Shown here piece by piece: positions 1,220-16,191 of a stretch of 64,000 nt of DNA. The DNA is from a virus. The translations under genes and the position numbers were made by a program. The DNA lies in IMG/VR virus record IMGVR_UViG_3300021960_000030, positions 47,865 through 111,864 of that record; one strand, given 5' to 3'. Below the pieces are notes generated by a model that was not told where the DNA came from, made no database searches, and saw only the letters and a list, made by a program, of their open reading frames with translations. The first letter of the stretch is position 1, and every line of letters starts with the position of its first letter.

Positions 1220-1263
1220 AATGTTGGGTCAAACGCGGTTTTTGGTTTCGCGGTTTTTGAGAG

Positions 1264-2258: not shown

Positions 2259-2437
2259 CAATCTGCCTCCCAATGGTCATCAGTAGCAGTGAATGGTTTC
2301 TTATACTTTTCAACAAAAGTGTCTGTGGAATCTGTGGAAAACTCTCGACGATCTTTGTTTCCCCAGTTACGCTTCTCTCTGATAGATTTGGGACGACGTG
2401 AGTTGTGAATGTCGTTCTTCTTGTATGTGCGACCCAT
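2258..2437 (-). CDS. Small basic hypothetical protein (59 aa)
   Basis: MGRTYKKNDIHNSRRPKSIREKR...; follows a sigma70-like promoter. Confidence 0.6.
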   Translation of the reverse strand: MGRTYKKNDIHNSRRPKSIREKRNWGNKDRREFSTDSTDTFVEKYKKPFTATDDHWEAD

Positions 2438-2686: not shown

Positions 2687-2697
2687 CTGCGCGTTCA

Positions 2698-3342
2698 TTA
2701 AGTAATGCCTACAGGGACAACATTGAATGAGATAGTGATACGATTATCCCCTAGGTTTGATTCATATCCATGAGTCAGATTAGGAGGATAGATTAACACA
2801 GTTCCCTCGTTATGAGGTACATAGCACTCGGGTTGATTGAATGCGGTTTCTTTACTACATTCGATCTGCAATGCTGGGAAATGAGTAGAAACAACGTGTC
2901 GTCTAAACTTCAATGGAGAATGAACTTTCTTGTCTAGATTGAGAAAATACGTTCCCGAATACAGAGCATTAGAATGTTCATGTGGAGCATAGATTGCACC
3001 CTCTGATGCTATCTCTAGGTAGGACTCTTGTATGTCAAATCTTGATGCATAGCACCAGGCATTTTCGTTGTGTTTGGATACTAGATCAAGCAGGATTGTT
3101 TTCAGTTCAGGCAGATCATTTAGCAGTTCATTGTCATTCCCTACAGTGACAACATTGTGAGAAATCATTCTCCTACCATGATCAGGATTGAGATCCTTAG
3201 TTCTCATCCAGGAGAGGATTTGTTGTTTGACGTTGTTATGATCGGGAACGTCAAATGCAGAGATGGCAGAAGGGAAACATGCGAAGGTTTGATTCTTATG
3301 TAATACCTCTTCAGTGAGATTGTCAGAGAGTTGATCAGTCAT
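2698..3342 (-). CDS. 2OG-Fe(II) oxygenase (TIGR02466-like)
   Basis: PHEHSN.YSGTYFL ... EGTVLIYPPNLTHG ... RITISFN. Confidence 0.85.
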   Translation of the reverse strand: MTDQLSDNLTEEVLHKNQTFACFPSAISAFDVPDHNNVKQQILSWMRTKDLNPDHGRRMISHNVVTVGNDNELLNDLPELKTILLDLVSKHNENAWCYASRFDIQESYLEIASEGAIYAPHEHSNALYSGTYFLNLDKKVHSPLKFRRHVVSTHFPALQIECSKETAFNQPECYVPHNEGTVLIYPPNLTHGYESNLGDNRITISFNVVPVGIT

Positions 3343-3344
3343 GT

Positions 3345-3758
3345 TTAGCGAAGATAGAGATAATGACCTGCCCAATCTGCTTTACGATAACACTCTTCGC
3401 GAGAGTTCTTATCAAACAGATTGAAACGAATGCCTTTGGCAGGTTTAGAAATGGAGGCGGGTTTATATACGTCACCCGTCACCTTATCTATGAAACAATG
3501 AACAGAACGGGATCCGCTCTGATTCATCATCACTTTAGCATACTTGCGTCCTTCTTCTACATCAAAGGAAATGCGCCAATCAAAACGATCTTCGCGGATT
3601 GCATCCAGTTGTGATTGGAAATAACCCGTATCATCAGCACCTTTACTAACCTGATGACGATAGGACTTTACAGTGTAGAGTCGATAATCTTGCTCCAGTG
3701 ATTCACACAAACAGGCGATCAAAGTGTTGAGCGGAGTGTTGTTCAGAGTTTCGAGCAT
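3345..3758 (-). CDS. Conserved T4-like phage early protein
   Basis: GRKYAKV...SVHCFIDKVTGDVYKPAS..KPAKGIRFNL motif. Confidence 0.8.
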   Translation of the reverse strand: MLETLNNTPLNTLIACLCESLEQDYRLYTVKSYRHQVSKGADDTGYFQSQLDAIREDRFDWRISFDVEEGRKYAKVMMNQSGSRSVHCFIDKVTGDVYKPASISKPAKGIRFNLFDKNSREECYRKADWAGHYLYLR

Positions 3759-3763
3759 TTGAT

Positions 3764-3928
3764 TCAGTTAGCGGTGCGTTGAATGAGATTGCCAGTCAGG
3801 TGAAATGCTTCGCCAGTGTGGTAACGAACGCCAGGAAAAAGAATAAACGAAACGACGAAGATGATGCCAATGAGTTTCACTTTTCTGGGGTCAAGTGGTT
3901 TGCAAGTGAGGCGCTTACGGCGTGCCAT
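3764..3928 (-). CDS. Small membrane protein (54 aa)
   Basis: Own translation MARRKRLTCKPLDPRKVKLIGIIFVVSFILFPGVR...; one hydrophobic segment. Confidence 0.5.
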   Translation of the reverse strand: MARRKRLTCKPLDPRKVKLIGIIFVVSFILFPGVRYHTGEAFHLTGNLIQRTAN

Positions 3929-3932
3929 TGTA

Positions 3933-4265
3933 TCAACCGAGGCGCATGGAAGAGAAGAAAGGAACGATGGAAATACCTTGGGCAGTGTTCATCGAAACGA
4001 ACCAATCGAAGTTCTTTTGAAACACACCATCACCCGATTCGCCGTGCTCTTTGAGAATAGCATTCAGGCGGGATTTGGTGGTGTTGGATTGCCAACCACC
4101 ATCGAAAAGACGGATGTAAGTCTCACCCACGTCTGCAATGTGATTGCCGTGCAGATACACTTTAGACTCACCAGTGTCGGCGTCAAAGGTAACAGAAGTG
4201 TTACCAGATTGCCAGTTCACGTTGTTGGTGATGGCGGCGTTCATTTGGGTTTCGATCTTACGCAT
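3933..4265 (-). CDS. Cyanophage early hypothetical protein
   Basis: MRKIETQMNAAI...VYLHGNHIA...GGWQSNTTKSRLNA; directly after an early promoter. Confidence 0.8.
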   Translation of the reverse strand: MRKIETQMNAAITNNVNWQSGNTSVTFDADTGESKVYLHGNHIADVGETYIRLFDGGWQSNTTKSRLNAILKEHGESGDGVFQKNFDWFVSMNTAQGISIVPFFSSMRLG

Positions 4266-4321
4266 GATTGAGAAGAGAGTGGTTTGCGGGGGGCGGTGCT
4301 CTGTGCCCCTCCGATGAAACT

Positions 4322-4380
4322 AATATAGGGCATTTGGGGGGTCTGTGCCAGAATGGTGGACACTCTGCCGACTGGCACAG
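4322..4380 (-). promoter_or_regulatory. Early promoter (bipartite palindromic motif + -10)
   Basis: GTGCCAGTCGGCAGAGTGTCCAC ... TATATT. Confidence 0.75.
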
Positions 4381-4387
4381 GAGTTCT

Positions 4388-4561
4388 TTACTCTTCTAGC
4401 AACTCGGGATAGTATTCTCCAACCTCATCAATCAGTTCCTTTTCACTATATCCATCCAGGTTTTCATCCAGTTGATCATATACCAATGCGATGAGATCTT
4501 TGAGGTCCATGCCATCAATGATTTGATTGATGTATGCTGCTTGGAGTTCTTCGCGGTTCAT
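4388..4561 (-). CDS. Small acidic early protein (57 aa)
   Basis: Own translation MNREELQAAYINQIIDGMDLKDL...EYYPELLEE. Confidence 0.65.
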   Translation of the reverse strand: MNREELQAAYINQIIDGMDLKDLIALVYDQLDENLDGYSEKELIDEVGEYYPELLEE

Positions 4562-4600
4562 GATTGTTGAGGTGATTGTGTTAGTCAGCGTTGCGCGTTC

Positions 4601-4762
4601 TTATCGGTAATCAGCGCAAACTTCATCATAGGATGCGCCAACTGGGATTTGTTTGCAGAATCGTTCTAACTTAGCGTCCTGCAGTTGTGAGACTGCCTCT
4701 ATAGCACGGAGACCCATGATTCCACCACAAAGTAGAACGATTGCAACGAGAATAAGACGCAT
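4601..4762 (-). CDS. Small signal-anchored protein (53 aa)
   Basis: MRLILVAIVLLCGGIMGLRAIEAV... Confidence 0.55.
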   Translation of the reverse strand: MRLILVAIVLLCGGIMGLRAIEAVSQLQDAKLERFCKQIPVGASYDEVCADYR

Positions 4763-4770
4763 GATGTTAA

Positions 4771-4950
4771 TCAGAGACCGTTGATAAAGTCAGCGAGTGC
4801 CTCATCGTACTCTGCTTTAGTGTTAAAAACACGACCGTGAATCTCACGGGGATAGGTAGCATCAACACCGACACTTGCTACCATCTGGCAGTCAGCGACA
4901 TCGTAACCCATTTCAACGAGAGTAGCAACGTAGGGATTGGAGATTGTCAT
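4771..4950 (-). CDS. Small early protein (59 aa)
   Basis: MTISNPYVATLVEMGYD...YPREIHGRVFNTKAEYDEALADFINGL. Confidence 0.6.
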   Translation of the reverse strand: MTISNPYVATLVEMGYDVADCQMVASVGVDATYPREIHGRVFNTKAEYDEALADFINGL

Positions 4951-4982
4951 TTGTTTGTGTTAGTTAGTTGGAAAAGATTGAA

Positions 4983-5255
4983 TCAGTAACGAGAATCACC
5001 TGCGATGATTTCATCATCCAGTTCTGCATCAAAAGCAGCAGATTGCCAGTTAAAGTAGAACAAATCCCATGCAGCATTGTCACAAACAAAGGAGTGACAA
5101 TCTGCCTGATCACATACCCAATCGTATGCCATATCACAATCGGCGTTGTTATCGATGGTGAAAGATTGCAGACCTTCGATTGCACCCAGGAACGCAGGAT
5201 CCTCAACCAGGGAGACGTGCGCCTTGCCAGTTTCGGGGTCGTGGATGAGAGTCAT
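4983..5255 (-). CDS. Acidic early hypothetical protein
   Basis: MTLIHDPETG..., start placed downstream of the promoter at 5281. Confidence 0.7.
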   Translation of the reverse strand: MTLIHDPETGKAHVSLVEDPAFLGAIEGLQSFTIDNNADCDMAYDWVCDQADCHSFVCDNAAWDLFYFNWQSAAFDAELDDEIIAGDSRY

Positions 5256-5280
5256 GAGTCGTTTCGTTTGGTGTCCCCTT

Positions 5281-5340
5281 ATTATAGGCATGGGGTTGGG
5301 CGGTTTCGGGGGTGGAGTGGACAGTTAACACATTGTCCCC
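5281..5340 (-). promoter_or_regulatory. Early promoter
   Basis: GGGACAATGTGTTAACTGTCCAC ... TATAAT. Confidence 0.7.
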
Positions 5341-5361
5341 CATGTGTTAAGAATGTTGGAT

Positions 5362-5643
5362 TTATTTAACACATGCTGCGGAGAGGTTTGCTACCTTGAA
5401 GCGTGCAATCTCATCGGGGGTGTTATCAACCAGCACAGGAGTGTCGTTGAAACTGATACGAACGATGGAAGGATTCATTTCCTGCCACTCACGCAAAGTG
5501 AGGCGACGAACATCACCCGAATCAGGAAAAGAGGTCAGTTTCTTGATAGTTTTGAACTCGCTGGCAGTGGTATCATCAGCGAAGAAATACTTCAGTTCCC
5601 GACGATACGTTGCAGTCGTGATTGCGTTGGGAAGGAGTTGCAT
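5362..5643 (-). CDS. Early hypothetical protein
   Basis: MQLLPNAITTATYRRELKYFF..., follows promoter. Confidence 0.65.
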   Translation of the reverse strand: MQLLPNAITTATYRRELKYFFADDTTASEFKTIKKLTSFPDSGDVRRLTLREWQEMNPSIVRISFNDTPVLVDNTPDEIARFKVANLSAACVK

Positions 5644-5668
5644 TTGATTGCGTTTCTTTGACTCTCTT

Positions 5669-5727
5669 AGAATACACGCTTTTGGGCGCTTGTGCGGGTT
5701 TGGTGGACAGTTTGTGGAACTGTCACA
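5669..5727 (-). promoter_or_regulatory. Early promoter
   Basis: GTGACAGTTCCACAAACTGTCCAC ... TATTCT. Confidence 0.7.
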
Positions 5728-5968
5728 CCACTCGCTCAGTGTAGACAGTTTCCTCCACACAATAGTAGAGGGATTCTGATTTTAAGTTGATAAACTGCAG
5801 CACTTTCATTGTCAACAATGCGATGCGTTCTTGTCCACCATTGCTATACCAGTTGCGTGCACTTTTTGCAGCGTAGGTAACAACACCAATCCAGAATGCA
5901 AGGATGGTAGCAATGTGGAACAGCATGTTGTGAATGAAAGTGAAGTAGTTGTCAGCGAAAGTTTTCAT
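5723..5968 (-). CDS. Membrane-associated hypothetical protein
   Basis: 81 aa with a hydrophobic stretch. Confidence 0.6.
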   Translation of the reverse strand: MKTFADNYFTFIHNMLFHIATILAFWIGVVTYAAKSARNWYSNGGQERIALLTMKVLQFINLKSESLYYCVEETVYTERVV

Positions 5969-6037
5969 CGGTTGATTGCTTTGAAGAAGAAGATTAGTCC
6001 ACCAAGAGTCAACAAACCAGTTGCAATCAGTGAAGCA

Positions 6038-6256
6038 TTAACTACATCCATAGTTCTCCATGTATTCGGTGAGAGTATAACCCTCGTCGTCAGTATTGGT
6101 TTCTGCGATTAACTGTTCGAGAGTGTAGTTGTTGAGATCCTCACGATACTCTTCTGTCGTTGGATCTACATCAGGATCGAAATCATCATGGCAGAGATAA
6201 TCCCACTCTGCACACAATGCATCGATGAGTTGTTCTCTGGTGTATTCAGTAGTCAT
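6038..6256 (-). CDS. Acidic early hypothetical protein
   Basis: YTREQLIDALCAEWDYLCHDDFDP. Confidence 0.75.
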   Translation of the reverse strand: MTTEYTREQLIDALCAEWDYLCHDDFDPDVDPTTEEYREDLNNYTLEQLIAETNTDDEGYTLTEYMENYGCS

Positions 6257-6458
6257 ACTGATGGAATGTGCAGTTTTGATCGAGTTTGTTCAGTTGTTCG
6301 TAGTATTTGAGGAAGATTGTATCAATCGTGCTGTAGTAGGGTTCGTTAGCACTTGGATACCCACATTCTCGTGCGTTCTCTATAAAATGCAGCAGGCAAC
6401 TAACTTCTTCATTATCGAACTGAATAGCATTGAAGACTTCAGAAACCGAAACTGTCAT
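6246..6458 (-). CDS. Hypothetical protein
   Basis: 70 aa, tiles operon. Confidence 0.6.
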   Translation of the reverse strand: MTVSVSEVFNAIQFDNEEVSCLLHFIENARECGYPSANEPYYSTIDTIFLKYYEQLNKLDQNCTFHQYDY

Positions 6459-6580
6459 TTGTTGTAAGGAGAGTTGAAGAAACGACGGAAAGCAGTAACA
6501 ACAATGATAAACGCCGAAACAACACCAACCAAACCAAGGTAGGTAACAGCATCGCCAGTGAAAGTGTAAGTGTCAGGCAT
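6455..6580 (-). CDS. Small membrane protein (41 aa)
   Basis: MPDTYTFTGDAVTYLGLVGVVSAFIIVVTAFRRFFNSPYNK. Confidence 0.6.
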   Translation of the reverse strand: MPDTYTFTGDAVTYLGLVGVVSAFIIVVTAFRRFFNSPYNK

Positions 6581-6846
6581 CAATCAAAAACAGGGAGTAC
6601 AGGTGGACGATTTCGGAAAAAGTCACGTCGAACTTCTTCCATAATCTTTGGAGGAGTGCCATAGTAACCAAGGTGCATCCAGTAACAGTCAATCAATCGA
6701 AGATCTTGCTCTCTTCGATTGTCTTCATCGTAGGGATCTAGTTGTGTGAAGTGAGCACAATAGACCACAATCTCATGAGGAATCTTATCAACAGCGAACC
6801 CCACAGATGGGGGTTGCTGGATATAAATGGGGACAGTCATCAGCAC
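6580..6846 (-). CDS. Hypothetical protein
   Basis: 88 aa, tiles operon. Confidence 0.6.
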   Translation of the reverse strand: MLMTVPIYIQQPPSVGFAVDKIPHEIVVYCAHFTQLDPYDEDNRREQDLRLIDCYWMHLGYYGTPPKIMEEVRRDFFRNRPPVLPVFD

Positions 6847-7079
6847 ATCACAGGAGAATAGTCAGAACCGTTGTATGCACGGAGGTTGAAGTCAACAACC
6901 TGAGCACCGTTAGCAATAAGATTGCGGATGTCGTAGAGTGCGTCAGTCTTAACAACAGTGGAGAAAGAGGTCATCTCAGACTCAGCACCAGGATGCCAGA
7001 TCACACGCTTAACAAAACGCTTTGCAGCAGGACTGCAAGGGTAGAAGTCAACTTGAGTGGCAGAGTTGGTCAGTTGCAT
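6840..7079 (-). CDS. Early hypothetical protein
   Basis: MQLTNSATQVDFYP..., after promoter. Confidence 0.7.
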   Translation of the reverse strand: MQLTNSATQVDFYPCSPAAKRFVKRVIWHPGAESEMTSFSTVVKTDALYDIRNLIANGAQVVDFNLRAYNGSDYSPVMC

Positions 7080-7105
7080 GTGGTGGGTGTTCCTTTGACT
7101 CTTTT

Positions 7106-7164
7106 AATATACAGGAGATTGGGGGTCTGTGCTGGTCTAGTGGACGCTTTGACCAAGTGGCACA
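7106..7164 (-). promoter_or_regulatory. Early promoter
   Basis: GTGCCACTTGGTCAAAGCGTCCAC ... TATATT. Confidence 0.7.
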
Positions 7165-7368
7165 TCAGTCACCTGAGAGGTGCCCCGACTGCTGCAGCAT
7201 GGCGACCTCACGATCCCAGGCAGCATTGTTCTCTTTACATTGGCGAATAAACTCAGGATCATTTGCCATTGCTTCGGCAGCAGATTCGAGATCTTGGATG
7301 TTACCATCCCACATGATATTTCTGGATTGATTGTACTGGTTGAACCAGTGAGAGTCATACTTAGGCAT
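7165..7368 (-). CDS. Hypothetical protein
   Basis: MPKYDSHWFNQ... Confidence 0.6.
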   Translation of the reverse strand: MPKYDSHWFNQYNQSRNIMWDGNIQDLESAAEAMANDPEFIRQCKENNAAWDREVAMLQQSGHLSGD

Positions 7369-7384
7369 TTCCCTCACCTCAGAT

Positions 7385-7443
7385 ACAATACACCCCTGAG
7401 ACCCTTCCACAAGCGCCTGTAGGACGGTTCAAAGACTGTCCTA
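7385..7443 (-). promoter_or_regulatory. Early promoter (divergent copy)
   Basis: AGGACAGTCTTTGAACCGTCCT ... TATTGT. Confidence 0.5.
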
Positions 7444-7478
7444 GGGGCATAGGGGGTCTAGGGGTCAAATAGACTATT

Positions 7479-7724
7479 CTAACCTGCTGCAATGTCATCT
7501 ACCTCAAAGAACCTAACTACTTCCTCATAAGGTATATCAATGTCACTGGTTTCAGTGATCGATTGATGCATCATCCACTCACGATAAGTGCCAATCCTAT
7601 CAATCGTGTCCCACACTTCCGTCGTGAGATCATCATTGGCGTAACTCTCAGTCTCCAGGTGATATGATGCGAGTGCATCCATGATGATGTTGAGTTGACG
7701 GATTGTGAGACGTTTGGGTGTCAT
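7479..7724 (-). CDS. Hypothetical protein
   Basis: 81 aa ORF. Confidence 0.6.
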   Translation of the reverse strand: MTPKRLTIRQLNIIMDALASYHLETESYANDDLTTEVWDTIDRIGTYREWMMHQSITETSDIDIPYEEVVRFFEVDDIAAG

Positions 7725-7936
7725 AGTGATTGATTCTGATAGTGCAAATGTGAGTCATTCACTGAGAGATTAGGATCATGATCACTGAAGATGCAAATGA
7801 TTGCATCATCATTCTCTACTGTGACACGCTCACGTTTTTCATGATAGAGATTATATGCGAACTCTCTCGCATAGTCAATATCATCGAAGTCCCATGTTTG
7901 TTCTACTGGGCGCTTCTGTCGTACTGTTATTGCCAT
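7721..7936 (-). CDS. Hypothetical protein
   Basis: 71 aa ORF, ATGA overlap. Confidence 0.6.
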   Translation of the reverse strand: MAITVRQKRPVEQTWDFDDIDYAREFAYNLYHEKRERVTVENDDAIICIFSDHDPNLSVNDSHLHYQNQSL

Positions 7937-8081
7937 GGATCTTTGATTACTAACTCGTGTGCTGCTTGTTGTCTAATCTTGGATGCAACGTAACGTTCAT
8001 CCTCTGAACCCCATTTCCATCCCATAAACACACCAACCTTAAATCCAATCGCAAATCCGAGTGCAAATGTGAGTGATGGAA

Positions 8082-8342
8082 TCACAGTTCATCTTCCTCA
8101 ATGATGTCAGAGTAATCTACACCATGTTCATCTAGAACTCTCTTGGCATGAGATGTAATCATGTCGATGAAGTCTTGCTCAGTGAAGTCATTGAAGATAG
8201 ACCAACGTTCATCATTAGGGTCCCACTCTATTTGTAGAGTGCCATCCTCATTTTCGCTTACCCTTAGACCGTCGTCCTCGGATGTTAGTGCTGGTGCTAA
8301 ATCCTCCTTCGGATTCTGGTCTGGGGTCAATGACTTCGACAT
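8082..8342 (-). CDS. Acidic hypothetical protein
   Basis: VSENEDGTLQIEWDPNDERWS. Confidence 0.65.
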   Translation of the reverse strand: MSKSLTPDQNPKEDLAPALTSEDDGLRVSENEDGTLQIEWDPNDERWSIFNDFTEQDFIDMITSHAKRVLDEHGVDYSDIIEEDEL

Positions 8343-8487
8343 GGCAAATGTACTGTGAAAAGTTCCAATAAACTGTCAGGACTTCATCGTATGAATGAAA
8401 CACTTTACAGGTGTCATCCTTGCACCATACTTTATACCAATGGCGATCATATGGTGCTTCAGATGTGACTGTAAAGTGTTGGGTCAT
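8248..8487 (-). CDS. Cyanophage hypothetical protein
   Basis: FTVTSEAPYDRHWYKV. Confidence 0.6.
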   Translation of the reverse strand: MTQHFTVTSEAPYDRHWYKVWCKDDTCKVFHSYDEVLTVYWNFSQYICHVEVIDPRPESEGGFSTSTNIRGRRSKGKRK

Positions 8488-8714
8488 TAGTCAAACATTT
8501 CGTTGCGTTTCTGACAGAGAAAGTCTAGCACAATCTCTCGCCATTCCATCAACTCATAGAAACACTCTTGATTGTGTGCACATTGACGGAGTTCATGGTC
8601 TGGTTTGAGAACTGACTCATAGAATAAACCCCACCCATCACGCATTTTCTGGGTTTTGATAGGATCCATCTCTTCATGCATTTCAAATGTTGCAAACTTG
8701 TAGTATTTAAGCAT
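8487..8714 (-). CDS. Cyanophage hypothetical protein
   Basis: FYESVLKPDHELRQCAHNQECFYELMEWR. Confidence 0.7.
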   Translation of the reverse strand: MLKYYKFATFEMHEEMDPIKTQKMRDGWGLFYESVLKPDHELRQCAHNQECFYELMEWREIVLDFLCQKRNEMFD

Positions 8715-8719
8715 AAAAG

Positions 8720-8753
8720 TGAGGAAATCCTTACGTCTTTAAGGATTTCCTCA
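8720..8753 (-). terminator. 14-bp perfect hairpin (terminator or translational control element)
   Basis: TGAGGAAATCCTTA-CGTCTT-TAAGGATTTCCTCA; followed by CTTTT then ATG on the minus strand. Confidence 0.55.
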
Positions 8754-8764
8754 TATTTACTTAA

Positions 8765-8947
8765 TCAAACTTCTTGAAACTTACCGTTCTTCCATTGTGC
8801 AAACTCGGGGTTGACTACATACCGTCCCTCTACAGGAGACCACAGAATCGGGTTGGGTTGAGCAACATTTTCGGCGTTGCGAATAGCATTACGGGATTGT
8901 GCAACCAGTTCCTCGATAGTGTAACGAGCGGGGCGAACTCCGTACAT
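8765..8947 (-). CDS. Early hypothetical protein
   Basis: MYGVRPARYTIEEL..., after promoter. Confidence 0.6.
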   Translation of the reverse strand: MYGVRPARYTIEELVAQSRNAIRNAENVAQPNPILWSPVEGRYVVNPEFAQWKNGKFQEV

Positions 8948-8969
8948 TTGGTGTCTTTGTTTGGTACCC

Positions 8970-9539
8970 TCATAGTATAGGCACAGGATTGCGGAGATCC
9001 AGGGGATCGTGGACAGCAAGTGGACTGGCACACTTCCAGACGTACCCGAGACTGTATCGAATAGGTTCACTCACAGGAGGGCAACCTTGATGCCATATTG
9101 TACTGTCAAACAGCACTAATCGCCCTGGTTTGCACTCAACATGCATAGTTTCACCCTGTTCAGTATAAAACAGAGTGTCACCATCGCCTCTGATGTAATA
9201 CAGACCACTGATTCTGTCGCTTCCCTTTAGAACATCCCAATCCGTGTGACTTTGGGCGTTCTGCCCAGGCGTCTGCACGTTCAGCAGGCAGCGATCAAGT
9301 TTTTGGATTCTATAATCCAACAGGATGTCATTGCACACTACCATATGCAAATAGTCCACAAACCAATGAGGAGCAATGGGTGCAATCCATCGCTCCTCAT
9401 CGATAAGCAACTGACCAAAGAACCGACTCACTTCATACTGACCGTAGGGTGAGTTGGTATAGGTTACAGGTATAAGTTGAAACTCTTCTGCATTCTTATT
9501 CACCATCCATTGTGGGAAATAGTTATCAACTATCAACAT
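8970..9539 (-). CDS. 2OG-Fe(II) oxygenase (prolyl-hydroxylase-like)
   Basis: HTD ... KPGRLVLFDSTIWHQG ... RYSL. Confidence 0.8.
   Translation of the reverse strand: MLIVDNYFPQWMVNKNAEEFQLIPVTYTNSPYGQYEVSRFFGQLLIDEERWIAPIAPHWFVDYLHMVVCNDILLDYRIQKLDRCLLNVQTPGQNAQSHTDWDVLKGSDRISGLYYIRGDGDTLFYTEQGETMHVECKPGRLVLFDSTIWHQGCPPVSEPIRYSLGYVWKCASPLAVHDPLDLRNPVPIL
8974..9032 (-). promoter_or_regulatory. Early promoter
   Basis: GTGCCAGTCCACTTGCTGTCCAC ... TATACT. Confidence 0.75.
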
Positions 9540-10041
9540 GTTGAATACGTTCAGAAATAACCTTAATCATGATAGCACGGATCTCTTCAGGGGCAAAACC
9601 TTGAGTGTTAAAGAAGCACGAGTTGCTACCAGCATTATATGTATCAAACCCATCAAGGTGTGCAACGTTGAGTGCCTTACCGATCACACCATCAGAGTAT
9701 GCACCCTCACCGATTGCAAAGGTGACGTATGACACATCAGGGTTAATCTTGCGGCAGATGTAGTTGTTCTTGAACCAGCGTTCGATAGCATTACCAGCAT
9801 CTTGCTGCTTCTTACCTTCAAACACTGCGATCAGTTTGCCCTTGTAGAACCATGCACCACCATCAGGTTCGCAGGCACCTTTACCACCAGGGATCTGATT
9901 CTTCTTCAACTTCTTCTGCAATGTCACACCAGTATATTGCAGAACGTCTGCAATCTCTTCCTTGATGACTTTACATTGGTTGTCAAGTTTGCGAGCATGT
10001 GCATCAGTAGCAACCATGCCTTTCTGAATGCCGCCTGCCAT
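9526..10041 (-). CDS. EcoRI-family PD-(D/E)XK restriction endonuclease, minimal (171 aa)
   Basis: EPDGG...FEGKKQ..AGNAIERWFKN...YVTF aligns with EcoRI KPDGG...AEAKHQ...AGNAIERSHKN...YVLF. Confidence 0.85.
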   Translation of the reverse strand: MAGGIQKGMVATDAHARKLDNQCKVIKEEIADVLQYTGVTLQKKLKKNQIPGGKGACEPDGGAWFYKGKLIAVFEGKKQQDAGNAIERWFKNNYICRKINPDVSYVTFAIGEGAYSDGVIGKALNVAHLDGFDTYNAGSNSCFFNTQGFAPEEIRAIMIKVISERIQHVDS

Positions 10042-10066
10042 TGTCTTGTGTCGTTTGGACTTCTTC

Positions 10067-10127
10067 ATTATACACACAGAAAAGGGGCGGTGGTGCCGCC
10101 CCATGTGGAGGTTGATGGACTGTCACA
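10067..10127 (-). promoter_or_regulatory. Early promoter of the endonuclease
   Basis: GTGACAGTCCATCAACCTCCAC ... TATAAT, 25 nt before ATG 10041. Confidence 0.7.
10080..10102 (-). terminator. Rho-independent terminator
   Basis: GGGGCGG-CACCA-CCGCCCC-TTTT. Confidence 0.7.
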
Positions 10128-10614
10128 TTGTATATTTCAGTTTCATCTTTCGATGGTATTGATATGCAAAGTGGGTTCGATTGCCATGGATACCCCAACC
10201 CAACCAGGGATAAGAATCACGCACATATTGTGGGATTGTTTTCCCTGGGGTTTTCATCCTAGGCAGAATGCCTTGGAACTGCTGCTCATTGTAGAGATAA
10301 CGGAGTTGTCCTTCCAACGAGTCAACATTGCAGGTATGCTTATAGCAAAACTTTGCTAGTCCGTTATACCTGTGTATTGTGGTCCATTGAATCAAACCAA
10401 ATCCACCAGACTTGCATCCATAATATCCTGTGAGTGCACCACCTTCGCAAACGAGATGATTAAAGTTGCTTTCTTGCTTGATGTTACCCATCAGTGCAGC
10501 GAGAGCATTCTTATCCTTGATCCCTTTTTCTTGAAAGAACGAGAGTGTTCTTTGTTCGGCAGGGGTACAAGTTTCACATTGATATATGGGTGCAGGAGGT
10601 TGATCGTAAAGCAT
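10123..10614 (-). CDS. Phage-tail-lysozyme-family peptidoglycan hydrolase
   Basis: AALMGNIKQESNF ... GGFGLIQWT ... GQLRYL. Confidence 0.8.
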   Translation of the reverse strand: MLYDQPPAPIYQCETCTPAEQRTLSFFQEKGIKDKNALAALMGNIKQESNFNHLVCEGGALTGYYGCKSGGFGLIQWTTIHRYNGLAKFCYKHTCNVDSLEGQLRYLYNEQQFQGILPRMKTPGKTIPQYVRDSYPWLGWGIHGNRTHFAYQYHRKMKLKYTM

Positions 10615-10619
10615 TAGAT

Positions 10620-11858
10620 TTAGACGAGGGACAGAGGAGGAATGCCTTTCACGAAGATAGCATCAACTACGTTCTGCAGTCGTTTGGTCACTTGCTTACC
10701 GTATGTGCGGTGCACAGGGACAGTTACATAACCGAAAGGTTTCCTGTAAAAGTCAAACTTACCAGGGGTAAGTTCACCGCTGCGAATGCGAGCGGCGTCA
10801 TCCTTATGTAGACGGATAACACGCCCGATGGTCTGTGCCATCTCAACAACGTTGAGATTGCGGAGCAGGATGCAGTGAGTCAGTCCAGGAACGTTGATAC
10901 CTTCAGACAGAATACTGTAGTGGAAGATAACAAACTTCTTGGTAGGATCGGCACCCCAAGATGTCAGGGTGTTGAAGAACTGCTCACGATTGACTTTCTT
11001 ATCGTCTACATAGGCACCGAACTTAGAGGTAACGTGGAGAACATTGTAACCACGATCCTTAAGTTGTTGGAGAAGATCGGTCTGACCGATCATGTTACCT
11101 AGCACACGACTAGACGGCACTGCAACAAGAACCTTGGCAGCATGAGTATCATCGAGATTGTCAATGATGTCCTGCACGGTGTTGCTGTCAACGACATGTG
11201 CGTTGACCTTGTTACGAGTATTGTCTGTGGTGAATGGCACAATCTGGGGAGGGATGATGCTACCGTTGTTGATCAGTTCCGAAGCAGGAACGTTCTCAAT
11301 GACGGCACCATAGACCTCACGATTGTGCATTCCACGCTCATGCTTGTGCGAGATGCGAGGAGTAGCAGTGAAGAAGTAGCAACGCTCTGCAACATCAGAG
11401 ATGGCAAAGGTGCTGGTGAAGAAAGACTTAGCAACACTATTGTGTGCCTCGTCAAAGTACACTGCACTGATATTGATGCCTGCATCAACTACACGACCCA
11501 GCGAATGATAGGTGGTGAAGATGATGCAGGACTCACCTGCTGCACGAGCGGTGTTGTTGAAGAGAGCAATCTTGCTGCTCTTGGTAGAGTGAAAGTAATG
11601 GGTTTCACCACTGTGAGCGTGACACACATGCACAGACTTGCTGTCAATGAACTGCATGAACTCATCACACAGTTGAGTAGCAAGCAGGATGCGAGGAGCA
11701 ACAACAACAATCGTAGAAGATTGCTGCAGTTGACACAGTGCATCCTGAATCATGATGAAAGTCTTGCCACCGCCAGTAGGGACAATGATTTGACCCTTAT
11801 CGTTGACTTGCATTGCTGCAAGGGCACGATCTTGGTGAGGACGAAGAACAACAGTCAT
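10620..11858 (-). CDS. SF2 DExH helicase (type III restriction Res-like)
   Basis: LRPHQ, PTGGGKT, DEAH, TATP, LSEGINVP, QTIGRVIR. Confidence 0.9.
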   Translation of the reverse strand: MTVVLRPHQDRALAAMQVNDKGQIIVPTGGGKTFIMIQDALCQLQQSSTIVVVAPRILLATQLCDEFMQFIDSKSVHVCHAHSGETHYFHSTKSSKIALFNNTARAAGESCIIFTTYHSLGRVVDAGINISAVYFDEAHNSVAKSFFTSTFAISDVAERCYFFTATPRISHKHERGMHNREVYGAVIENVPASELINNGSIIPPQIVPFTTDNTRNKVNAHVVDSNTVQDIIDNLDDTHAAKVLVAVPSSRVLGNMIGQTDLLQQLKDRGYNVLHVTSKFGAYVDDKKVNREQFFNTLTSWGADPTKKFVIFHYSILSEGINVPGLTHCILLRNLNVVEMAQTIGRVIRLHKDDAARIRSGELTPGKFDFYRKPFGYVTVPVHRTYGKQVTKRLQNVVDAIFVKGIPPLSLV

Positions 11859-11882
11859 GTATGTGGATCGCTCAACAGAAAT

Positions 11883-11941
11883 AATATACTACCACACCTC
11901 ACCAGTCGGTGAAAACAGGGTGCACTTCGCAAACTGTCACA
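11883..11941 (-). promoter_or_regulatory. Early promoter
   Basis: GTGACAGTTTGCGAAGTGCAC ... TATATT. Confidence 0.65.
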
Positions 11942-12075
11942 CCACCCCTCTTGAGGTGCTTTTCCCATTCAATCGCATCAACTAGCGTCAGAAACGTCGC
12001 TGTAACTTGCGAAGTATGCCCTTTCTTCTTCTGTCTCTTCCAAATAACGTTGTATTTCTTCGCGTTTGATGTCAT
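11899..12075 (-). CDS. Small basic hypothetical protein (58 aa)
   Basis: Own translation MTSNAKKYNVIWKRQKKKGHTSQVTATFLTLVDAIEWEKHL... Confidence 0.55.
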   Translation of the reverse strand: MTSNAKKYNVIWKRQKKKGHTSQVTATFLTLVDAIEWEKHLKRGGVTVCEVHPVFTDW

Positions 12076-12126
12076 AAACAGAGGGAAGTTGCTTAGCGTT
12101 TGAATGTTGCGGATCTTGTTGGGGAC

Positions 12127-12462
12127 TCATTGGGGGCGCTCTCCTTCAGGTAGCATATCGTTGCCAGGATGTTCAGGAATGTAACCATGGTATGCTTTGT
12201 GATTGTAGAAGTGTGAATCTTCTATTTCAATCTCATCCCAATCATGTTGATAGATTAGCAAACAACATTGTGTTGTTGGTTGTCTAGCAGATGGGTCACC
12301 GTGTTCATATTCATGAAAACACATTGAGATGTAATCATTACAGGTAAAGCAGATGTAACCCTCTAAACCTTTGTACCGAATGGGTGATCCGATCTCAAGT
12401 GATTTCAAGATGTTCCTGATCTCCAGGGCAACTGACTCTGAGATTAGCAGGGGTGTGGTCAT
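12127..12462 (-). CDS. Hypothetical protein
   Basis: 111 aa, ATGA overlap. Confidence 0.65.
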   Translation of the reverse strand: MTTPLLISESVALEIRNILKSLEIGSPIRYKGLEGYICFTCNDYISMCFHEYEHGDPSARQPTTQCCLLIYQHDWDEIEIEDSHFYNHKAYHGYIPEHPGNDMLPEGERPQ

Positions 12463-13091
12463 ATTGTCAACCTATTGGTACAGTCTCCGTACTGTCCATG
12501 CAACCAATAGTTGAACGCAACACTATACCGATCCGACAGACTTCGGTTAGGTTCAACACTATGCTCTACAGTTGATGGGAACAGCAATATCAATGCTTCC
12601 TCAGCAGGTATAGACCAGCACGATGAGTTGTAGACATTGTGCTCAACAATATCAGGTCTCATTGCTGGTGTTGTATATGTGTCACGATTGGAATCTGCGT
12701 GAAACAATATATCCCCACAGTTGGGTGGCGTCTTTATGTATATGACACCACTATACATTGAGTTGCAATGTGTATGTTTGTGTGCAGAATGACCTATTTT
12801 GTGTCTAGTTGCCCACGAACAATGATGCCGTGCTACATATCTCTTATCGAAGCACAGTATGTTATACAAATAGTGATTCAGATGTCTCTCAACCAGTGCC
12901 TTTAACTCTGGGCACCCATCTAATAGTCTTTGGTTGGAAGTATTCTCACCATTCTTCTCTTGTGGGTCAGAATAATACTCCTGATTAACAACATACTCCA
13001 CTATCTCTGTAGACAGTGGAGCATTGCGAGACACATATAATGGATTGTTGAACAGTGGAAAGACTGATCTATCGTAATCACCTAAGTTCAT
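12459..13091 (-). CDS. 2OG-Fe(II) oxygenase (TIGR02466-like)
   Basis: HTHCNSMYSGVIY ... LLFPSTVEHSV ... RYSVAFN. Confidence 0.9.
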   Translation of the reverse strand: MNLGDYDRSVFPLFNNPLYVSRNAPLSTEIVEYVVNQEYYSDPQEKNGENTSNQRLLDGCPELKALVERHLNHYLYNILCFDKRYVARHHCSWATRHKIGHSAHKHTHCNSMYSGVIYIKTPPNCGDILFHADSNRDTYTTPAMRPDIVEHNVYNSSCWSIPAEEALILLFPSTVEHSVEPNRSLSDRYSVAFNYWLHGQYGDCTNRLTI

Positions 13092-13696
13092 AGCACCAAA
13101 TCTCGTGTGGGTGCACTGAAGTCACCCTTCATGATTACATTAAATCCTAATGAATATCTATCTTGTATAGACTCATTGTATCCTGTGTAGTGGTCTACAT
13201 GTGCAGGGAAGCATACAATCATGCCACGCTCAGGTACAATCTGCCAGATGCGTGAGTTGAATATATTATTCTCCCATGTTCGTGGTTCCAATGTACCTGT
13301 GTTCCATGTGGCATGATTATATGATGCCTCAAAGATAATGTTGCCACTATCATCAGGCACGTCAAGATACAGGCAACCTGTGAACATACTATTGGTATGT
13401 CCATGCCTGTCTGCTCTTTCACCTGGGCGATGTTTATTCACCCATGAGCATACAATCTCACACGTCACTCGATCATCAATAGCGAGGACATTGTGAGCAT
13501 AGTGGGCAATATGTCCAAGACAAATGTGATGCAGTTGTGGATACCTTCGTAAAATCTGAGTATCAACAGTCTGCATCCCATCTGCCCGCTTGGGGTAATC
13601 CTTATATTCTTCCTGTTTGATTAAATCTATCTCATCTTGTGGAATGTCATAGGTGTCAACAAATACAGGTGTGGAGAATATAGGAAAGACAGTCAT
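13088..13696 (-). CDS. 2OG-Fe(II) oxygenase (TIGR02466-like)
   Basis: HGHTNSMFTGCLY ... FPAHVDHYT ... RYSLGFN. Confidence 0.9.
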   Translation of the reverse strand: MTVFPIFSTPVFVDTYDIPQDEIDLIKQEEYKDYPKRADGMQTVDTQILRRYPQLHHICLGHIAHYAHNVLAIDDRVTCEIVCSWVNKHRPGERADRHGHTNSMFTGCLYLDVPDDSGNIIFEASYNHATWNTGTLEPRTWENNIFNSRIWQIVPERGMIVCFPAHVDHYTGYNESIQDRYSLGFNVIMKGDFSAPTRDLVL

Positions 13697-13863
13697 TTTT
13701 CAGTGGGTTCAAGATGTAATGTAGTAACGATCTCATGAATCGTAGCACGTTGTTTAGGACTGATGTCTCCCTGCCTTTTATAGAGGTCAGAGAGTAATAG
13801 TAACATTGCCCTCTTAAGTAATCCTTTTGCCTCGTGACTAAGTTGTGCTGACTTGAGGAACAT
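13693..13863 (-). CDS. Hypothetical protein
   Basis: MFLKSAQLSHEAKGLL... Confidence 0.5.
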   Translation of the reverse strand: MFLKSAQLSHEAKGLLKRAMLLLLSDLYKRQGDISPKQRATIHEIVTTLHLEPTEK

Positions 13864-14347
13864 CGGTCTCGTTCTCCTTACGAGTTTCGTAGTATTGTCC
13901 GACGATAGTGACACGGTTGCCCTTGAAACCAATCGTCTGTCGTAATCTTACCGTGTCATTATGTAAAAGTCGAATCTCTTCACGAAATCTTTGTTTTCCA
14001 TATTCTGTATCAAAGAGGATAGTATCCTCATCAATCATAGTTACATCAGTCATGGTGGGACTGGAGGTCATATATCCCTGAGAGCGATACATCTTCCCAT
14101 CCTTACTATTGATTCCGACAAGCATCTCACCAGATGAAGCAGGTTCACCTGAACTATATTTAACAGTTTCCCATCCAAACTTTACATAATAGTCACTGTG
14201 GACATCTTCTGGGATGACTGCTTTCTCAGCATCATTTAGTTCACCAACGAGGAGTTCACTGGTCATGAGTTCTGCACTCTCACCATACAAATATCTACGG
14301 TGGGAATGCCATTCACCTTTCGATCTATCGAACCATTGTGTAATCAT
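13838..14347 (-). CDS. S-type (CpeS/CpcS/CpcV-like) phycobiliprotein lyase
   Basis: WFDRSKGEWHSHRRY ... RSQGY ... TEYGKQRFREEIRL..RLRQT. Confidence 0.75.
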   Translation of the reverse strand: MITQWFDRSKGEWHSHRRYLYGESAELMTSELLVGELNDAEKAVIPEDVHSDYYVKFGWETVKYSSGEPASSGEMLVGINSKDGKMYRSQGYMTSSPTMTDVTMIDEDTILFDTEYGKQRFREEIRLLHNDTVRLRQTIGFKGNRVTIVGQYYETRKENETDVPQVSTT

Positions 14348-14880
14348 ACTGACCTCTTCAGATTTACATTTAGAACGACACGAATGCCTTCCTTGGGTGG
14401 TGTTGATGCATGTAGAATATGTCCAGGGAAATGTACTACACGACCCTGCCTACAGTCTACACTATCAGTGAGTTCTAGTCTGTCATTGAAGAACAACGTG
14501 GGTGCTTTTTCGTTTTCAGTTATATACCACAACACCACGTCATGTTCCTCACTGAAGTCTACATGTGGTTTGTTATGTTTCTTCTTGGTAGGATACAACA
14601 AACCCAATCGTGCACGATATATATCCTCATGACTATATCCATACAGACTTGCAAACTGACACAACTCTAGATGAAATAGATCATAGTATGGTGATCGTAC
14701 CTCATAGTCCATCTTTAATAGATGCATGAATGCACCACCACCAGAGGGCACAAGGTCTGTGGCATCAGGTATATAATGCCATGGAAACTCAGGCGAGGTA
14801 ACTATACGTTCAATCTCTTTTGTTGCTACATCAGAGATTAAGTGCGTATTGATTTCTGTCTGGTTTGTTCTCAGGATCAT
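14344..14880 (-). CDS. 2OG-Fe(II) oxygenase-like protein
   Basis: FPWHY, PHVD, GRVVHFPGHILHAS, RVVLNVN. Confidence 0.75.
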   Translation of the reverse strand: MILRTNQTEINTHLISDVATKEIERIVTSPEFPWHYIPDATDLVPSGGGAFMHLLKMDYEVRSPYYDLFHLELCQFASLYGYSHEDIYRARLGLLYPTKKKHNKPHVDFSEEHDVVLWYITENEKAPTLFFNDRLELTDSVDCRQGRVVHFPGHILHASTPPKEGIRVVLNVNLKRSV

Positions 14881-15523
14881 GCCAACATGGAATACTTAGG
14901 GACAGTCGTTCTTGATCAGGACGAGCACAATGATAGCAGCGTGATGGTATATACAACATGTCTCCAGGTTGTAGTACCGTATCGATTGCAGGTGTTACTT
15001 CATCCTTACTAGGATTATAGGGGAATCCAGTATATTTGACAAGTGTACTCACTCTCTCATTATATACTGTCCAGTGTGTCTCACCATGTATTTGCATGAT
15101 GAAGTTTGCTGGTTGATCCCAATGAATCTTGAATGAACTTGCACCACCTAATGCACCATAAATGTGTGCATCACATGCTACATCGAATGTACCCTCAATC
15201 CTACGCAGCAATGCATTAACACGAGCATTGTGATGACCATACTTAGCGATCACAAATGTGTTGTTCCTATTGACAAGTTCAAAGATAACTTTCTTGTCTG
15301 GATGCCAGTTACCATGCCACGGGTGAGGCACAGTGGGCATAGGAACTTTGGTGTTGTTGTTATCTAAAATCTCAACATTATACACCCAGGGATTGTTTAG
15401 GCAATGCTCAACATCTGCCCAGTGCACATACTCTGTGGGTGTGTCACATACACCCTTGAATAACATCGGGGTGTCACCACATGTGTAGTGGTTAGGATTC
15501 AGAAATGGATACGAAATGGACAT
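14831..15523 (-). CDS. JmjC/cupin-4 hydroxylase (RoxA/YcfD-like)
   Basis: SFKIHWD..NFIMQIHGETHWTVY ... LQPGDMLYIPSRCYHCA. Confidence 0.85.
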   Translation of the reverse strand: MSISYPFLNPNHYTCGDTPMLFKGVCDTPTEYVHWADVEHCLNNPWVYNVEILDNNNTKVPMPTVPHPWHGNWHPDKKVIFELVNRNNTFVIAKYGHHNARVNALLRRIEGTFDVACDAHIYGALGGASSFKIHWDQPANFIMQIHGETHWTVYNERVSTLVKYTGFPYNPSKDEVTPAIDTVLQPGDMLYIPSRCYHCARPDQERLSLSIPCWHDPENKPDRNQYALNL

Positions 15524-16191
15524 TTAGATTCCCTCTTCATGATTAAATCCCAGGACTTATATGGTGCCCAGTGTTTGAGTTGCTGATCCTGTTTGATCCT
15601 TTCTAGTTTATCAGGAGATGGTGTCTTTCTACTCAGTTTGAATGTATCTTTACCACGCACAAACTTAGCATGAAAGATAGGTGTGCCACGTTTGATTACT
15701 ATATCGTCATCAATACGATGAGGAACAATACCAATGGGCAACGATCTCATCCATGATGAGACAGGAAATGTGCCAGGGACAACACTAAACCCATGTTGTG
15801 CAACTGTGGGGTGTCCAGTATATTCTACCCACACATTCTTGGCATCAGTCCAGAACAATGTATTGTATCTGATTTGTATCTCAGGCAGTTCATCATTCCA
15901 CCAGTTAGGACTAATCATGAACAGATCTTGGAGTTTATCTCCATGCGTATCAGATCCGATCATGCGATGCTCATTGCTACACCTGAAGTGTAGATCAAAT
16001 GGGAAATAGAATGTCCACCTATTCTTACACCACTCTTTGTGTGCTGGGCAATACATATGGTCGTGAGACTTTATCCCATCATTGTATGCAATGGTGGGTG
16101 TAATCTCCCAATCTTCAGCAAAGGTAGGAATCTGGTAGTCCTCATCAGGACCAGAAGGAATCACTGATGTGTGATATACATTTACTGCCAT
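15499..16191 (-). CDS. Hypothetical protein (DUF6065/dUTPase-fold-like)
   Basis: CPA, FPFD, VVPG, IKRGTPI; C-terminal SKCPF. Confidence 0.65.
   Translation of the reverse strand: MAVNVYHTSVIPSGPDEDYQIPTFAEDWEITPTIAYNDGIKSHDHMYCPAHKEWCKNRWTFYFPFDLHFRCSNEHRMIGSDTHGDKLQDLFMISPNWWNDELPEIQIRYNTLFWTDAKNVWVEYTGHPTVAQHGFSVVPGTFPVSSWMRSLPIGIVPHRIDDDIVIKRGTPIFHAKFVRGKDTFKLSRKTPSPDKLERIKQDQQLKHWAPYKSWDLIMKRESKCPFRIHF

Follow-up and report, generated by a model that had tools for sequence, protein, structure and literature searches.

Restriction enzymes are textbook bacterial defences. MluCI and Tsp509I, both of which cut AATT, are bacterial enzymes with accompanying methylases; PacI is methylase-less, and the genome of its producer, a GC-rich bacterium, is free of the 8-bp, AT-only PacI site. 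The chlorovirus restriction-modification (R-M) systems have been proposed to serve in host-DNA degradation, the viral DNA being protected, and the T4 nucleases destroy host DNA, T4 DNA being exempt via hydroxymethylcytosine. According to a review, REase genes are rare on bacteriophages, EcoRI, MunI and MluCI are related by mosaicism, and the star activity of EcoRI is directed to N^AATTN (PMC4081073). No paper was found that deals with an AATT restriction system in cyanophages or with their avoidance of CCGG or AATT, and in the S-CREM2 paper a gene annotated as "restriction endonuclease EcoRI" was left undiscussed.

The gene described here is located in a 64-kb stretch (the window) of a 111,864-bp contig (G000) of a marine T4-like cyanophage with a GC content of 46%, the lineage of which is present in estuary or marine samples. 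Its predicted product resembles EcoRI (G^AATTC; PF02963; PDB 1eri, 1ckq, 2oxv) in the PD-(D/E)XK alpha-class fold and in the collinear catalytic and recognition motifs, but differs in size (171 aa versus 277 aa), in the site, which is probably 4 bp instead of 6 bp, and in partnership, the EcoRI methylase belonging to PF13651 and the partner in related phages to the Dam family (PF02086), whereas the lineage of the window has no partner. The AATT core of the probable target is common to the sites of MluCI and Tsp509I (^AATT) and of MunI (C^AATTG). As a virus-encoded type II endonuclease it is comparable to those of the Chlorella-virus R-M systems (e.g., CviAII), except that chloroviruses protect themselves by methylation, whereas this phage lineage lacks a methylase and the site is absent. 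With T4 endonucleases II and IV (denA, denB) the analogy is functional only, as the folds are unrelated, and exemption of the phage DNA here would stem from the missing target word. With PacI it would share self-protection through site absence, not modification; however, absence of the PacI site is nearly cost-free, whereas here a 4-bp word with about 340 expected occurrences per 112 kb is at zero. The features of the region are as follows.

8970..9539, minus strand: 2OG-Fe(II) oxygenase gene, the start codon of which overlaps the nuclease 3′ end by 14 nt
9526..10041, minus strand: predicted gene for a minimal EcoRI-family type II restriction endonuclease, 171 aa, with the stop codon at 9526-9528
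10067..10072, minus strand: perfect -10 hexamer TATAAT, 25 nt 5′ of the ATG at 10041 and just past the terminator
10078..10102, minus strand: intrinsic terminator of the transcript of the upstream lysozyme-like gene, with a 7-bp all-G:C stem, a 5-nt loop and a T-run (hairpin 10102-10084)
10123..10614, minus strand: phage tail lysozyme-like gene between helicase and nuclease, with no methylase in the stretch beside the nuclease
10620..11858, minus strand: ResIII/DEAD-type helicase, the conserved anchor gene
1..64000, no strand: genome-wide AATT exclusion (0 sites), in coding DNA via context-dependent synonymous codon choice

The minus-strand frame 9526..10104 is open for 192 aa, but the N-terminal extension beyond the ATG at 10041 is spurious, because the terminator hairpin sits within it and the homologues begin at MAGGIQ in the family alignment; translation therefore starts at ATG 10041, which yields the 171-aa ORF that an earlier, sequence-only reading of the window had proposed. 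The same reading had assigned the gene an early promoter of its own, of which the perfect TATAAT was found, whereas no -35 element was recognisable upstream of it. In relatives, promoters of the TTGACA-17-TATAAT type occupy the same position, with the -35 often inside the terminator-hairpin loop. Early expression of the nuclease may be supposed. The 14-nt overlap suggests that the oxygenase is probably co-transcribed with the nuclease. Metatranscriptome contigs X17-X20 spanned two genes of relatives, the helicase and the oxygenase, the nuclease gene lying outside their span. Comparison with the sister genome gave a dN/dS of 0.092 for the nuclease gene and 0.088 for the helicase; the solitary nuclease gene is under strong purifying selection.

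The residues P59-D60, E75-G-K77 (catalytic), Q79 and A82-G-N-A-I-E-R88 (recognition) aligned with EcoRI P90-D91, E111-x-K113, Q115 and A139-R145, respectively. In the family alignment (A1), P59-D60, E75/K77, Q79 and G83-N84-A85-(I86)-E87-R88 were invariant; among 43 diverse members (A2), D60, E75 and K77 were conserved at 90% or above and G83, N84 and R88 were invariant; and the GNAIER segment and Q79 were invariant or nearly so in 275 cluster representatives. The A2 profile matched EcoRI with an E value of 8.7e-10, with PDGG, E-A-K-H-Q and AGNAIER aligned residue for residue. Foldseek with the AF2 model (pLDDT 80) returned EcoRI as all of the best five matches (prob 1.0), and VIA-align against EcoRI gave a Z score of 12.7 and an rmsd of 3.0 over 150 of the 171 residues, the next tier being at 8.8. 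The EcoRI-family membership and the collinear motifs claimed from the sequence are thereby upheld at the level of fold and motif, and the profile alignment also confirmed the reported spacing: two residues join the catalytic and recognition motifs, versus more than 20 in EcoRI, the EcoRI inner arm (~117-136) being deleted. Roughly 85 EcoRI residues have no counterpart, and the full-length 277-aa architecture is not retained. The window protein had no Pfam match at E ≤ 1 and did not reach the gathering threshold of PF02963, for which relatives gave sub-threshold matches only (5/24 and 3/43); searches of PDB sequences with the single sequence or the A1 profile returned nothing, EcoRI being reached only with the broader A2 profile. 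Residues ~111-130, a possible counterpart of the EcoRI R200/R203 segment, were of low confidence in the AF2 model. A homodimeric enzyme may be supposed; in a two-copy prediction from A2, the score was almost equalled by that of one unrelated control. Judged by profile and model, the protein is an EcoRI-family PD-(D/E)XK nuclease.

Counting confirmed that AATT is absent from the window, where 306 ± 17 occurrences were expected from dinucleotide shuffles and 204 from a second-order Markov model, and extended the zero to the whole contig (339 expected) and to a 74-kb sister contig, G003 (233 expected). The phage thus avoids the candidate recognition word in its own genome, a feature of type II systems. 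All ten NAATTN contexts were missing from the window. In coding DNA, Asn AAT was never used before codons starting with T (0/266), Ile ATT never after codons ending in A (0/227), and NAA never before TT (0/265). The two contigs were 86.8% identical over 65.8 kb and differed by 8,693 substitutions, which, when placed at random in 300 runs, created 171 new AATT (at minimum 132); none was observed, indicating that the exclusion is actively maintained.

AATT depletion was associated with the gene. Among 136 strand-collapsed 4-mers, AATT was the best separator of carrier from non-carrier loci, with a median observed/expected ratio (O/E) of 0.34 versus 0.84 (p = 1e-11, the loci being counted without regard to relatedness). 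In the helicase-anchored set, no locus without the nuclease gene fell below an O/E of 0.5, and the non-carriers closest by helicase identity had values of 0.63-0.92, so that the nearest gene-less relatives were not AATT-depleted, in keeping with the sequence-only reading. These comparisons, the missing NAATTN contexts and the changes in the partner methylases described below support AATT as the likely target of the nuclease.

The description of the nuclease as an orphan was not borne out for its family. In ~90% of the contigs examined that carry it, the gene comes first in an R→M operon, a PF02086 methylase lying directly downstream in ~43 of 47 viral contigs and in most metagenome contigs; the solitary state here is therefore derived. 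One phage with the operon, S-RIM2, is in culture. Gene order in the other phages is nuclease, methylase and helicase, whereas here it is helicase, lysozyme-like gene and nuclease. All 62 nuclease-paired methylases caught by a motif screen had F[I/M]W..GGK and FNGI[W/Y]Q.N, and the orphan methylases occupying the same slot in non-carriers had FLKW and FNGLTRYN. In EcoDam, R124 reads the G at the fourth position and K9 reads the first pair (PMC4417163). Judged by these motifs, the partner methylases are changed at precisely those two positions with which Dam contacts the outer G:C pairs of GATC, and their specificity has probably shifted from GATC to AATT. This accessory module, widespread in marine cyanomyoviruses, appears to be an AATT-specific R-M pair; what is new here is the methylase-less, AATT-free state.

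We consider it probable, on the whole, that the locus encodes a miniature type IIP AATT nuclease, that the methylase has been lost in this lineage, and that self-protection is by site absence. The nuclease would be an active, miniature EcoRI-family enzyme with the predicted 4-bp target AATT. In most carrier cyanomyoviruses its gene opens an R-M operon of two genes, the second encoding an N6-adenine methylase of the Dam family with altered residues at the positions reading the outer pairs, and in the lineage of the window and its sister it sits alone, across the helicase, without a methylase, in a genome without AATT. The phage most likely avoids self-cutting by never containing the word. A new AATT mutation would open the phage DNA to its own nuclease and the mutant would be removed, and we propose that the perfect, ongoing exclusion exists because AATT-creating mutants fall in this way. 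The targets would be unmethylated, AATT-bearing DNA in the infected cell, namely the host chromosome, co-infecting phages and plasmids; fragmentation of the host DNA, a supply of nutrients and the exclusion of competitors may follow. More tentatively, the phage may represent 1) a lytic phage with an offensive restriction endonuclease, 2) discrimination of self from non-self without DNA modification, 3) a frequent 4-bp word held at zero over ~170 kb, and 4) restriction without modification through self-restriction of mutants, with methylase-bearing, near-purged and solitary-R phages marking the steps by which an R-M pair evolved into R alone.

It was also noticed that CCGG is absent from the window (75 expected) and from the contig (154 expected) and that RGCY words show a 5- to 10-fold depletion, which the sequence-only reading had overlooked. 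In nearly all of the 80 helicase-anchored loci, with or without the nuclease gene, CCGG was at zero and RGCY strongly depleted; the absence of CCGG is clade-wide and unrelated to the nuclease gene. A perfect purge can therefore have another cause, presumably host restriction, and absence of a 4-mer alone is not diagnostic. By analogy, AATT-specific restriction by the hosts may have removed AATT, after which the methylase became useless and was lost, and an AATT-specific phage nuclease was tolerated or acquired by an already site-free genome without being the enforcer. The clade-wide depletions, which have no evident matching self-encoded nuclease, and the position of the gene outside the canonical operon, which fits a separate acquisition, are in keeping with this possibility, but it is unlikely, as AATT depletion follows the gene across lineages and the purifying selection implies that the nuclease does something.

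As to the claim that no DNA methyltransferase is present, searches for PF02086, PF01555, PF00145, PF02384, PF13651, PF05869 and PF05063 found none in the 112 kb of the contig or the 74 kb of its sister, but the contig represents only ~63% of the genome (CheckV), so that the remainder may still encode a methylase. A cognate methylase in this third or so of the genome, and perhaps likewise hidden in the clade of locus L027 described below, would make the AATT exclusion an extreme of ordinary carrier avoidance. Such a case is suggested by the complete carrier genome G004, which has a second D12 methylase 70 kb from the operon, and by methylase-bearing carriers that are nearly AATT-free (L036, 0/23; L035, 3/42; L108, 8/61). 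Nevertheless, we regard it as quite improbable, since a methylase in a genome free of its target word would have nothing to protect and would be expected to decay, since seven methylase families are absent from both contigs, and since the methylase adjoins the nuclease in ~90% of carriers.

A second methylase-less nuclease clade, consisting of L027, L033 and L145-L150, was separate in the tree from the lineage of the window. No methylase was found from -6.3 to +10 kb of the nuclease, which is under purifying selection (dN/dS ~0.1), yet AATT is retained at an O/E of ~0.7-1.0. The sequence-only reading had named normal AATT counts in carriers as evidence against it, and this clade comes close to that; at ~0.70, the clade is somewhat under GC-matched non-carriers (0.93). 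Either a distant methylase protects this DNA, or phage DNA with AATT sites can survive in the presence of the nuclease to some extent. A search for another avoided word, as a sign of shifted specificity, gave nothing convincing. Retention of the gene in this clade with near-normal AATT and no neighbouring methylase, together with the loss of roughly a hundred EcoRI residues including the inner arm, might point to an EcoRI-fold nuclease with another role (repair, recombination or nicking) or another word, the AATT exclusion being unrelated, but this deserves little credence in view of the near-invariance of GNAIER and Q79, the identity of the gene-linked k-mer as AATT and not another word, and the close operonic pairing with a methylase of changed specificity residues, the signature of an R-M pair.

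Under the preferred reading of a solitary AATT nuclease, the lineage of the window is a natural experiment, in which a strongly selected nuclease persists after loss of the methylase and the target word is perfectly and continuously excluded. If AATT cutting is true, the enzyme would be a candidate for the unknown nuclease of host-DNA breakdown, or of inter-phage exclusion, in some cyanophages; it would be among the smallest EcoRI-fold enzymes and help to explain 6-bp versus 4-bp specificity; and it would show clearly how a nuclease can mould the choice among synonymous codons over a whole viral genome. The CCGG result serves as a warning for such interpretation, as that word is missing clade-wide for a different reason.

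Residue 109 of the nuclease was Ala in both methylase-less clades and Cys in 99% of the other nucleases. The change from Cys109 to Ala was considered as a mark of methylase-less nucleases and rejected, because L029 has both Ala109 and an adjacent methylase.

A nuclease gene in an AATT-free genome is a real feature of the window. The lack of AATT in the 64 kb, first claimed by a sequence-only reading, was borne out on counting: the count was 0, where dinucleotide shuffles predict 306 ± 17 and a second-order Markov model 204, and it was 0 vs 339 expected in G000, the whole 111,864-bp contig containing the window. On the minus strand, the ORF 10104-9526 is open for 192 aa. Since its first 21 codons contain an intrinsic terminator (stem 10102-10084 and a following T-run), and M-A/x-G-G-I-Q is the N-terminus of all homologues in the family alignment, the nuclease start was placed at ATG 10041, giving the 171-aa protein that had been proposed. 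The features of this region are:

9526-10041, minus strand: nuclease gene, 171 aa, start set by homologue N-termini
10067-10102, minus strand: terminator hairpin and TATAAT, -35 lost, upstream of the nuclease gene
8970-9539: 2OG-Fe(II) oxygenase gene, start codon overlapping the nuclease 3' end by 14 nt

The gene had also been credited with its own early promoter, of which a perfect TATAAT is found after the terminator, 25 nt 5' of the ATG, but no recognisable -35. Several relatives possess a full sigma-70-type promoter (e.g. TTGACA-17-TATAAT) at the equivalent site, the -35 often lying in the terminator hairpin loop; early expression of the nuclease is plausible from these sequences. A compact layout recurs upstream of the gene in loci L001 (S-RIM2), L008, L016, L021, L029 and L045-L047, in which a G+C-rich terminator hairpin carries the TTGACA of the next promoter in its loop or 3' arm and is followed by a T-run and the -10; the version at 10067-10102 has kept hairpin and TATAAT and lost the -35. 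The 14-nt overlap, together with adjacency of the same two genes in the sister contig G003, suggests that nuclease and oxygenase may be co-transcribed.

Searched singly against Pfam, the nuclease gave no match, and it belongs to PHROG 2400 of 'unknown function'. A full-library profile search yielded, at E <= 1e-3, 275 cluster representatives, most of them 165-200 aa long, and residues invariant in the family alignment include P59, D60, E75, K77, Q79, G83, N84, A85, E87 and R88. Profile A2, built from 43 diverse members, matched EcoRI in the PDB at E 8.7e-10, with c-e-P-D-G-G aligned to I-K-P-D-G-G, E-a-K-k-Q to E111-A-K113-H-Q115, and A-G-N-A-I-E-R-w-f-K-N to A139...R145-S-H-K-N; EcoRI residues ~117-136 had no counterpart in the family. 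With an AlphaFold model (pLDDT 80, pTM 0.79), the five best Foldseek matches were EcoRI (E 5.5e-5 to 8e-4, prob 1.0), and VIA-align superimposed 150 of the 171 residues on EcoRI 33-268 (Z 12.7, rmsd 3.0 Å), generic PD-(D/E)XK nucleases forming a next tier clearly below (Z 8.8). The collinearity with EcoRI motifs noticed earlier is thus confirmed by profile and by structure comparison, and the protein is a pared-down EcoRI-family nuclease that has kept the catalytic residues and those reading the inner AATT, an assignment that is well supported. By two formal marks of EcoRI membership the protein falls outside: it stays below the Pfam threshold, and it is devoid of the inner arm that EcoRI possesses.

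The family normally belongs to a restriction-modification operon. The nuclease is annotated as 'hypothetical' in S-RIM2 and as 'restriction endonuclease EcoRI' in S-CREM2; in both, one or two genes 3' of it and just before the helicase, there is a D12-class adenine methylase gene. A PF02086 methylase is directly downstream in ~43 of 47 IMG/VR carrier contigs (gap often ~10 bp), a ParB/DUF6551-like gene sometimes intervening, and the nuclease-methylase arrangement recurs in most of 39 metagenome contigs. The optional gene inserted between nuclease and methylase, ~330-350 aa with a weak DUF6551/ParB-like match, is present in L001 (S-RIM2, 20614-21669), L013, L017-L019, L040-L043, L162, L163 and L173. 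All 62 operon methylases caught by a motif screen read F-[I/M]-W-x-G-G-K and F-N-G-I-[W/Y]-Q-x-N; orphan D12 methylases in the same slot of nuclease-less phages read F-L-K-W and F-N-G-L-T-R-Y-N. Residue R124 of E. coli Dam makes contact with the fourth-pair guanine (R124A no longer needs C:G there), K9 helps to read the first pair, and the inner A:T pairs fall to N120, L122 and Y119 (PMC4417163). The operon methylases of the relatives thus keep the inner-pair readers and have replaced exactly the two outer-pair readers, as expected for a switch of target from GATC to AATT; for the nuclease of the window this evidence is indirect. The slot upstream of the helicase is a hotspot that can be empty of both genes, contain the nuclease with its methylase, or contain just a methylase; nuclease-less phages often have an orphan Dam-like D12 methylase there, as in L109, L112, L121 (8439-9236), L128 and L135.

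To relate gene to word, 24 carrier loci (at least 8 kb, methylase present) were compared with 70 helicase-anchored loci without the gene for all 136 strand-collapsed 4-mers. AATT was the best discriminator (median observed/expected ratio, O/E, 0.34 vs 0.84; Mann-Whitney p 1e-11, a value that ignores shared ancestry), and the tree spreads the carriers over many clades. The next words, AATC, AATG and AATA, are compensating neighbours, and GATC differs slightly (0.75 vs 0.88). All ten NAATTN contexts were depleted in carriers and absent from window and contig, which argues for a 4-bp rather than a 6-bp target. The relaxed ('star') specificity of EcoRI is N^AATTN, and MluCI cuts AATT. EcoRI, MunI and MluCI have been grouped as related by mosaicism (PMC4081073). 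It is probable that the nuclease is specific for AATT.

Among the carriers, only G000 and its sister G003 (73,883 bp; AATT 0/233; 95% identity in the nuclease) are wholly free of AATT over long stretches. As had been claimed for the window, no DNA methyltransferase was found in G003 or in the ~63% complete G000 among families PF02086, PF01555, PF00145, PF02384, PF13651, PF05869 and PF05063. The gene order in this lineage is helicase, lysozyme-like, nuclease, 2OG oxygenase, unlike the nuclease, methylase, helicase order of other carriers. In the non-carrier loci that are closest when ranked by helicase identity, the order is helicase, oxygenase ... lysozyme-like with no nuclease, and their AATT is ordinary (O/E 0.63-0.92); relatives without the gene are thus not equally depleted, and the purge is specific to the solitary-nuclease lineage. 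The exclusion is being kept up: G000 and G003 share 86.8% identity across 65.8 kb, and random placement of their 8,693 substitutions gave a mean of 171 new AATT (at least 132 in each of 300 runs), vs 0 in either genome. In coding DNA, avoidance is a context-dependent synonymous choice:

Codon choice in AATT contexts (this genome; other places in the same genes)
Asn AAT before T-starting codon: 0/266; 41%
Ile ATT after A-ending codon: 0/227; 43%
Lys/Glu/Gln NAA before TT: 0/265; 47%

Purifying selection on the nuclease equals in strength that on the helicase (dN/dS 0.092 vs 0.088), so the gene is not a decaying relic.

Evidence against a simple self-restriction model comes from a second methylase-less clade (L027, 1797-3277; L033; L145-L150, e.g. 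L146:6284-7764; GC ~36-42%), the loss being independent of the G000 lineage in the tree. Here nuclease is followed by DUF6267, compared with nuclease, methylase, DUF6267 in others, indicating precise methylase loss; the nuclease is under purifying selection (dN/dS ~0.1), AATT is kept (O/E ~0.7-1.0), and no methylase was found from -6.3 to +10 kb around the gene. The choice is between protection by a distant methylase and an incomplete model. There is a hint of the former, in that their AATT O/E of ~0.70 is below the 0.93 of GC-matched non-carriers, and in the complete carrier genome G004 a second D12 methylase lies 70 kb from the operon. A methylase of the G000 lineage could likewise lie in the missing part of the genome, for which ~63% completeness leaves room.

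AATT could also have been purged by another pressure, presumably host restriction, as with CCGG, a word that the sequence-only reading had passed over. CCGG numbered 0 vs 75 expected in the window and 0 vs 154 in the contig, and was 0 in nearly all 80 related cyanomyovirus loci (L065-L144), nuclease gene present or not. AGCT, GGCC, AGCC and GGCT (RGCY) were depleted 5- to 10-fold or more in window and contig, and RGCY in almost every related locus regardless of the gene. From the G000/G003 divergence ~90 new CCGG were expected and none was created in either. These losses are presumably due to host restriction, or may come from another phage nuclease; a literature search found no paper on CCGG avoidance in cyanophages. 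Perfect exclusion of a 4-mer can thus have another cause and the absence of AATT alone proves nothing; the argument for an AATT nuclease rests on gene-word association and methylase loss.

Protection by site exclusion, free of methylase, is on balance the best explanation for this lineage, function included. An AATT-specific nuclease would stay active in a genome that neither needs nor has a protective methylase, and a mutant gaining AATT would be cut by its own enzyme, which would explain a perfect and continuing purge. Some methylase-bearing carriers are nearly AATT-free (L036, 0/23; L035, 3/42; L108, 8/61; L016, 6/57) and look like intermediates toward the methylase-less state. Cutting of host DNA would supply nucleotides and shut off the host; the other obvious targets would be co-infecting, unmethylated, AATT-bearing phages, with chlorovirus restriction-modification systems and T4 EndoII/IV as analogues. 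The gene is accessory: among the phage records searched, 65 have it (S-RIM2 isolates for the most part), as do 2 of 80 helicase-anchored loci (G003 and L108), and this distribution fits a conditional weapon better than a core function in host take-over.

Among viruses, the known exception in having type II endonucleases is the chlorella viruses. Genes for such enzymes 'rarely occur on bacteriophages' (PMC4081073), and a literature search found no paper describing the nuclease-methylase module of cyanophages. New in the window is a derived state in which the methylase has gone and AATT is totally and actively excluded. No other comparative evidence speaks as strongly for the AATT assignment, and the state is also a variant, new in kind, of carrying a restriction enzyme safely.

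The lysozyme-like gene (window 10123-10614; G003 9577-10068) was 73.6% identical between the two contigs, with dS 1.38, whereas its neighbours were ~92% identical, which looks like local recombinational replacement or a hypervariable gene. The substitution spectrum of G000 5-68041 against G003 was strand-asymmetric, G<->A (1649 + 1524) being nearly twice C<->T (897 + 912) on the plus strand.
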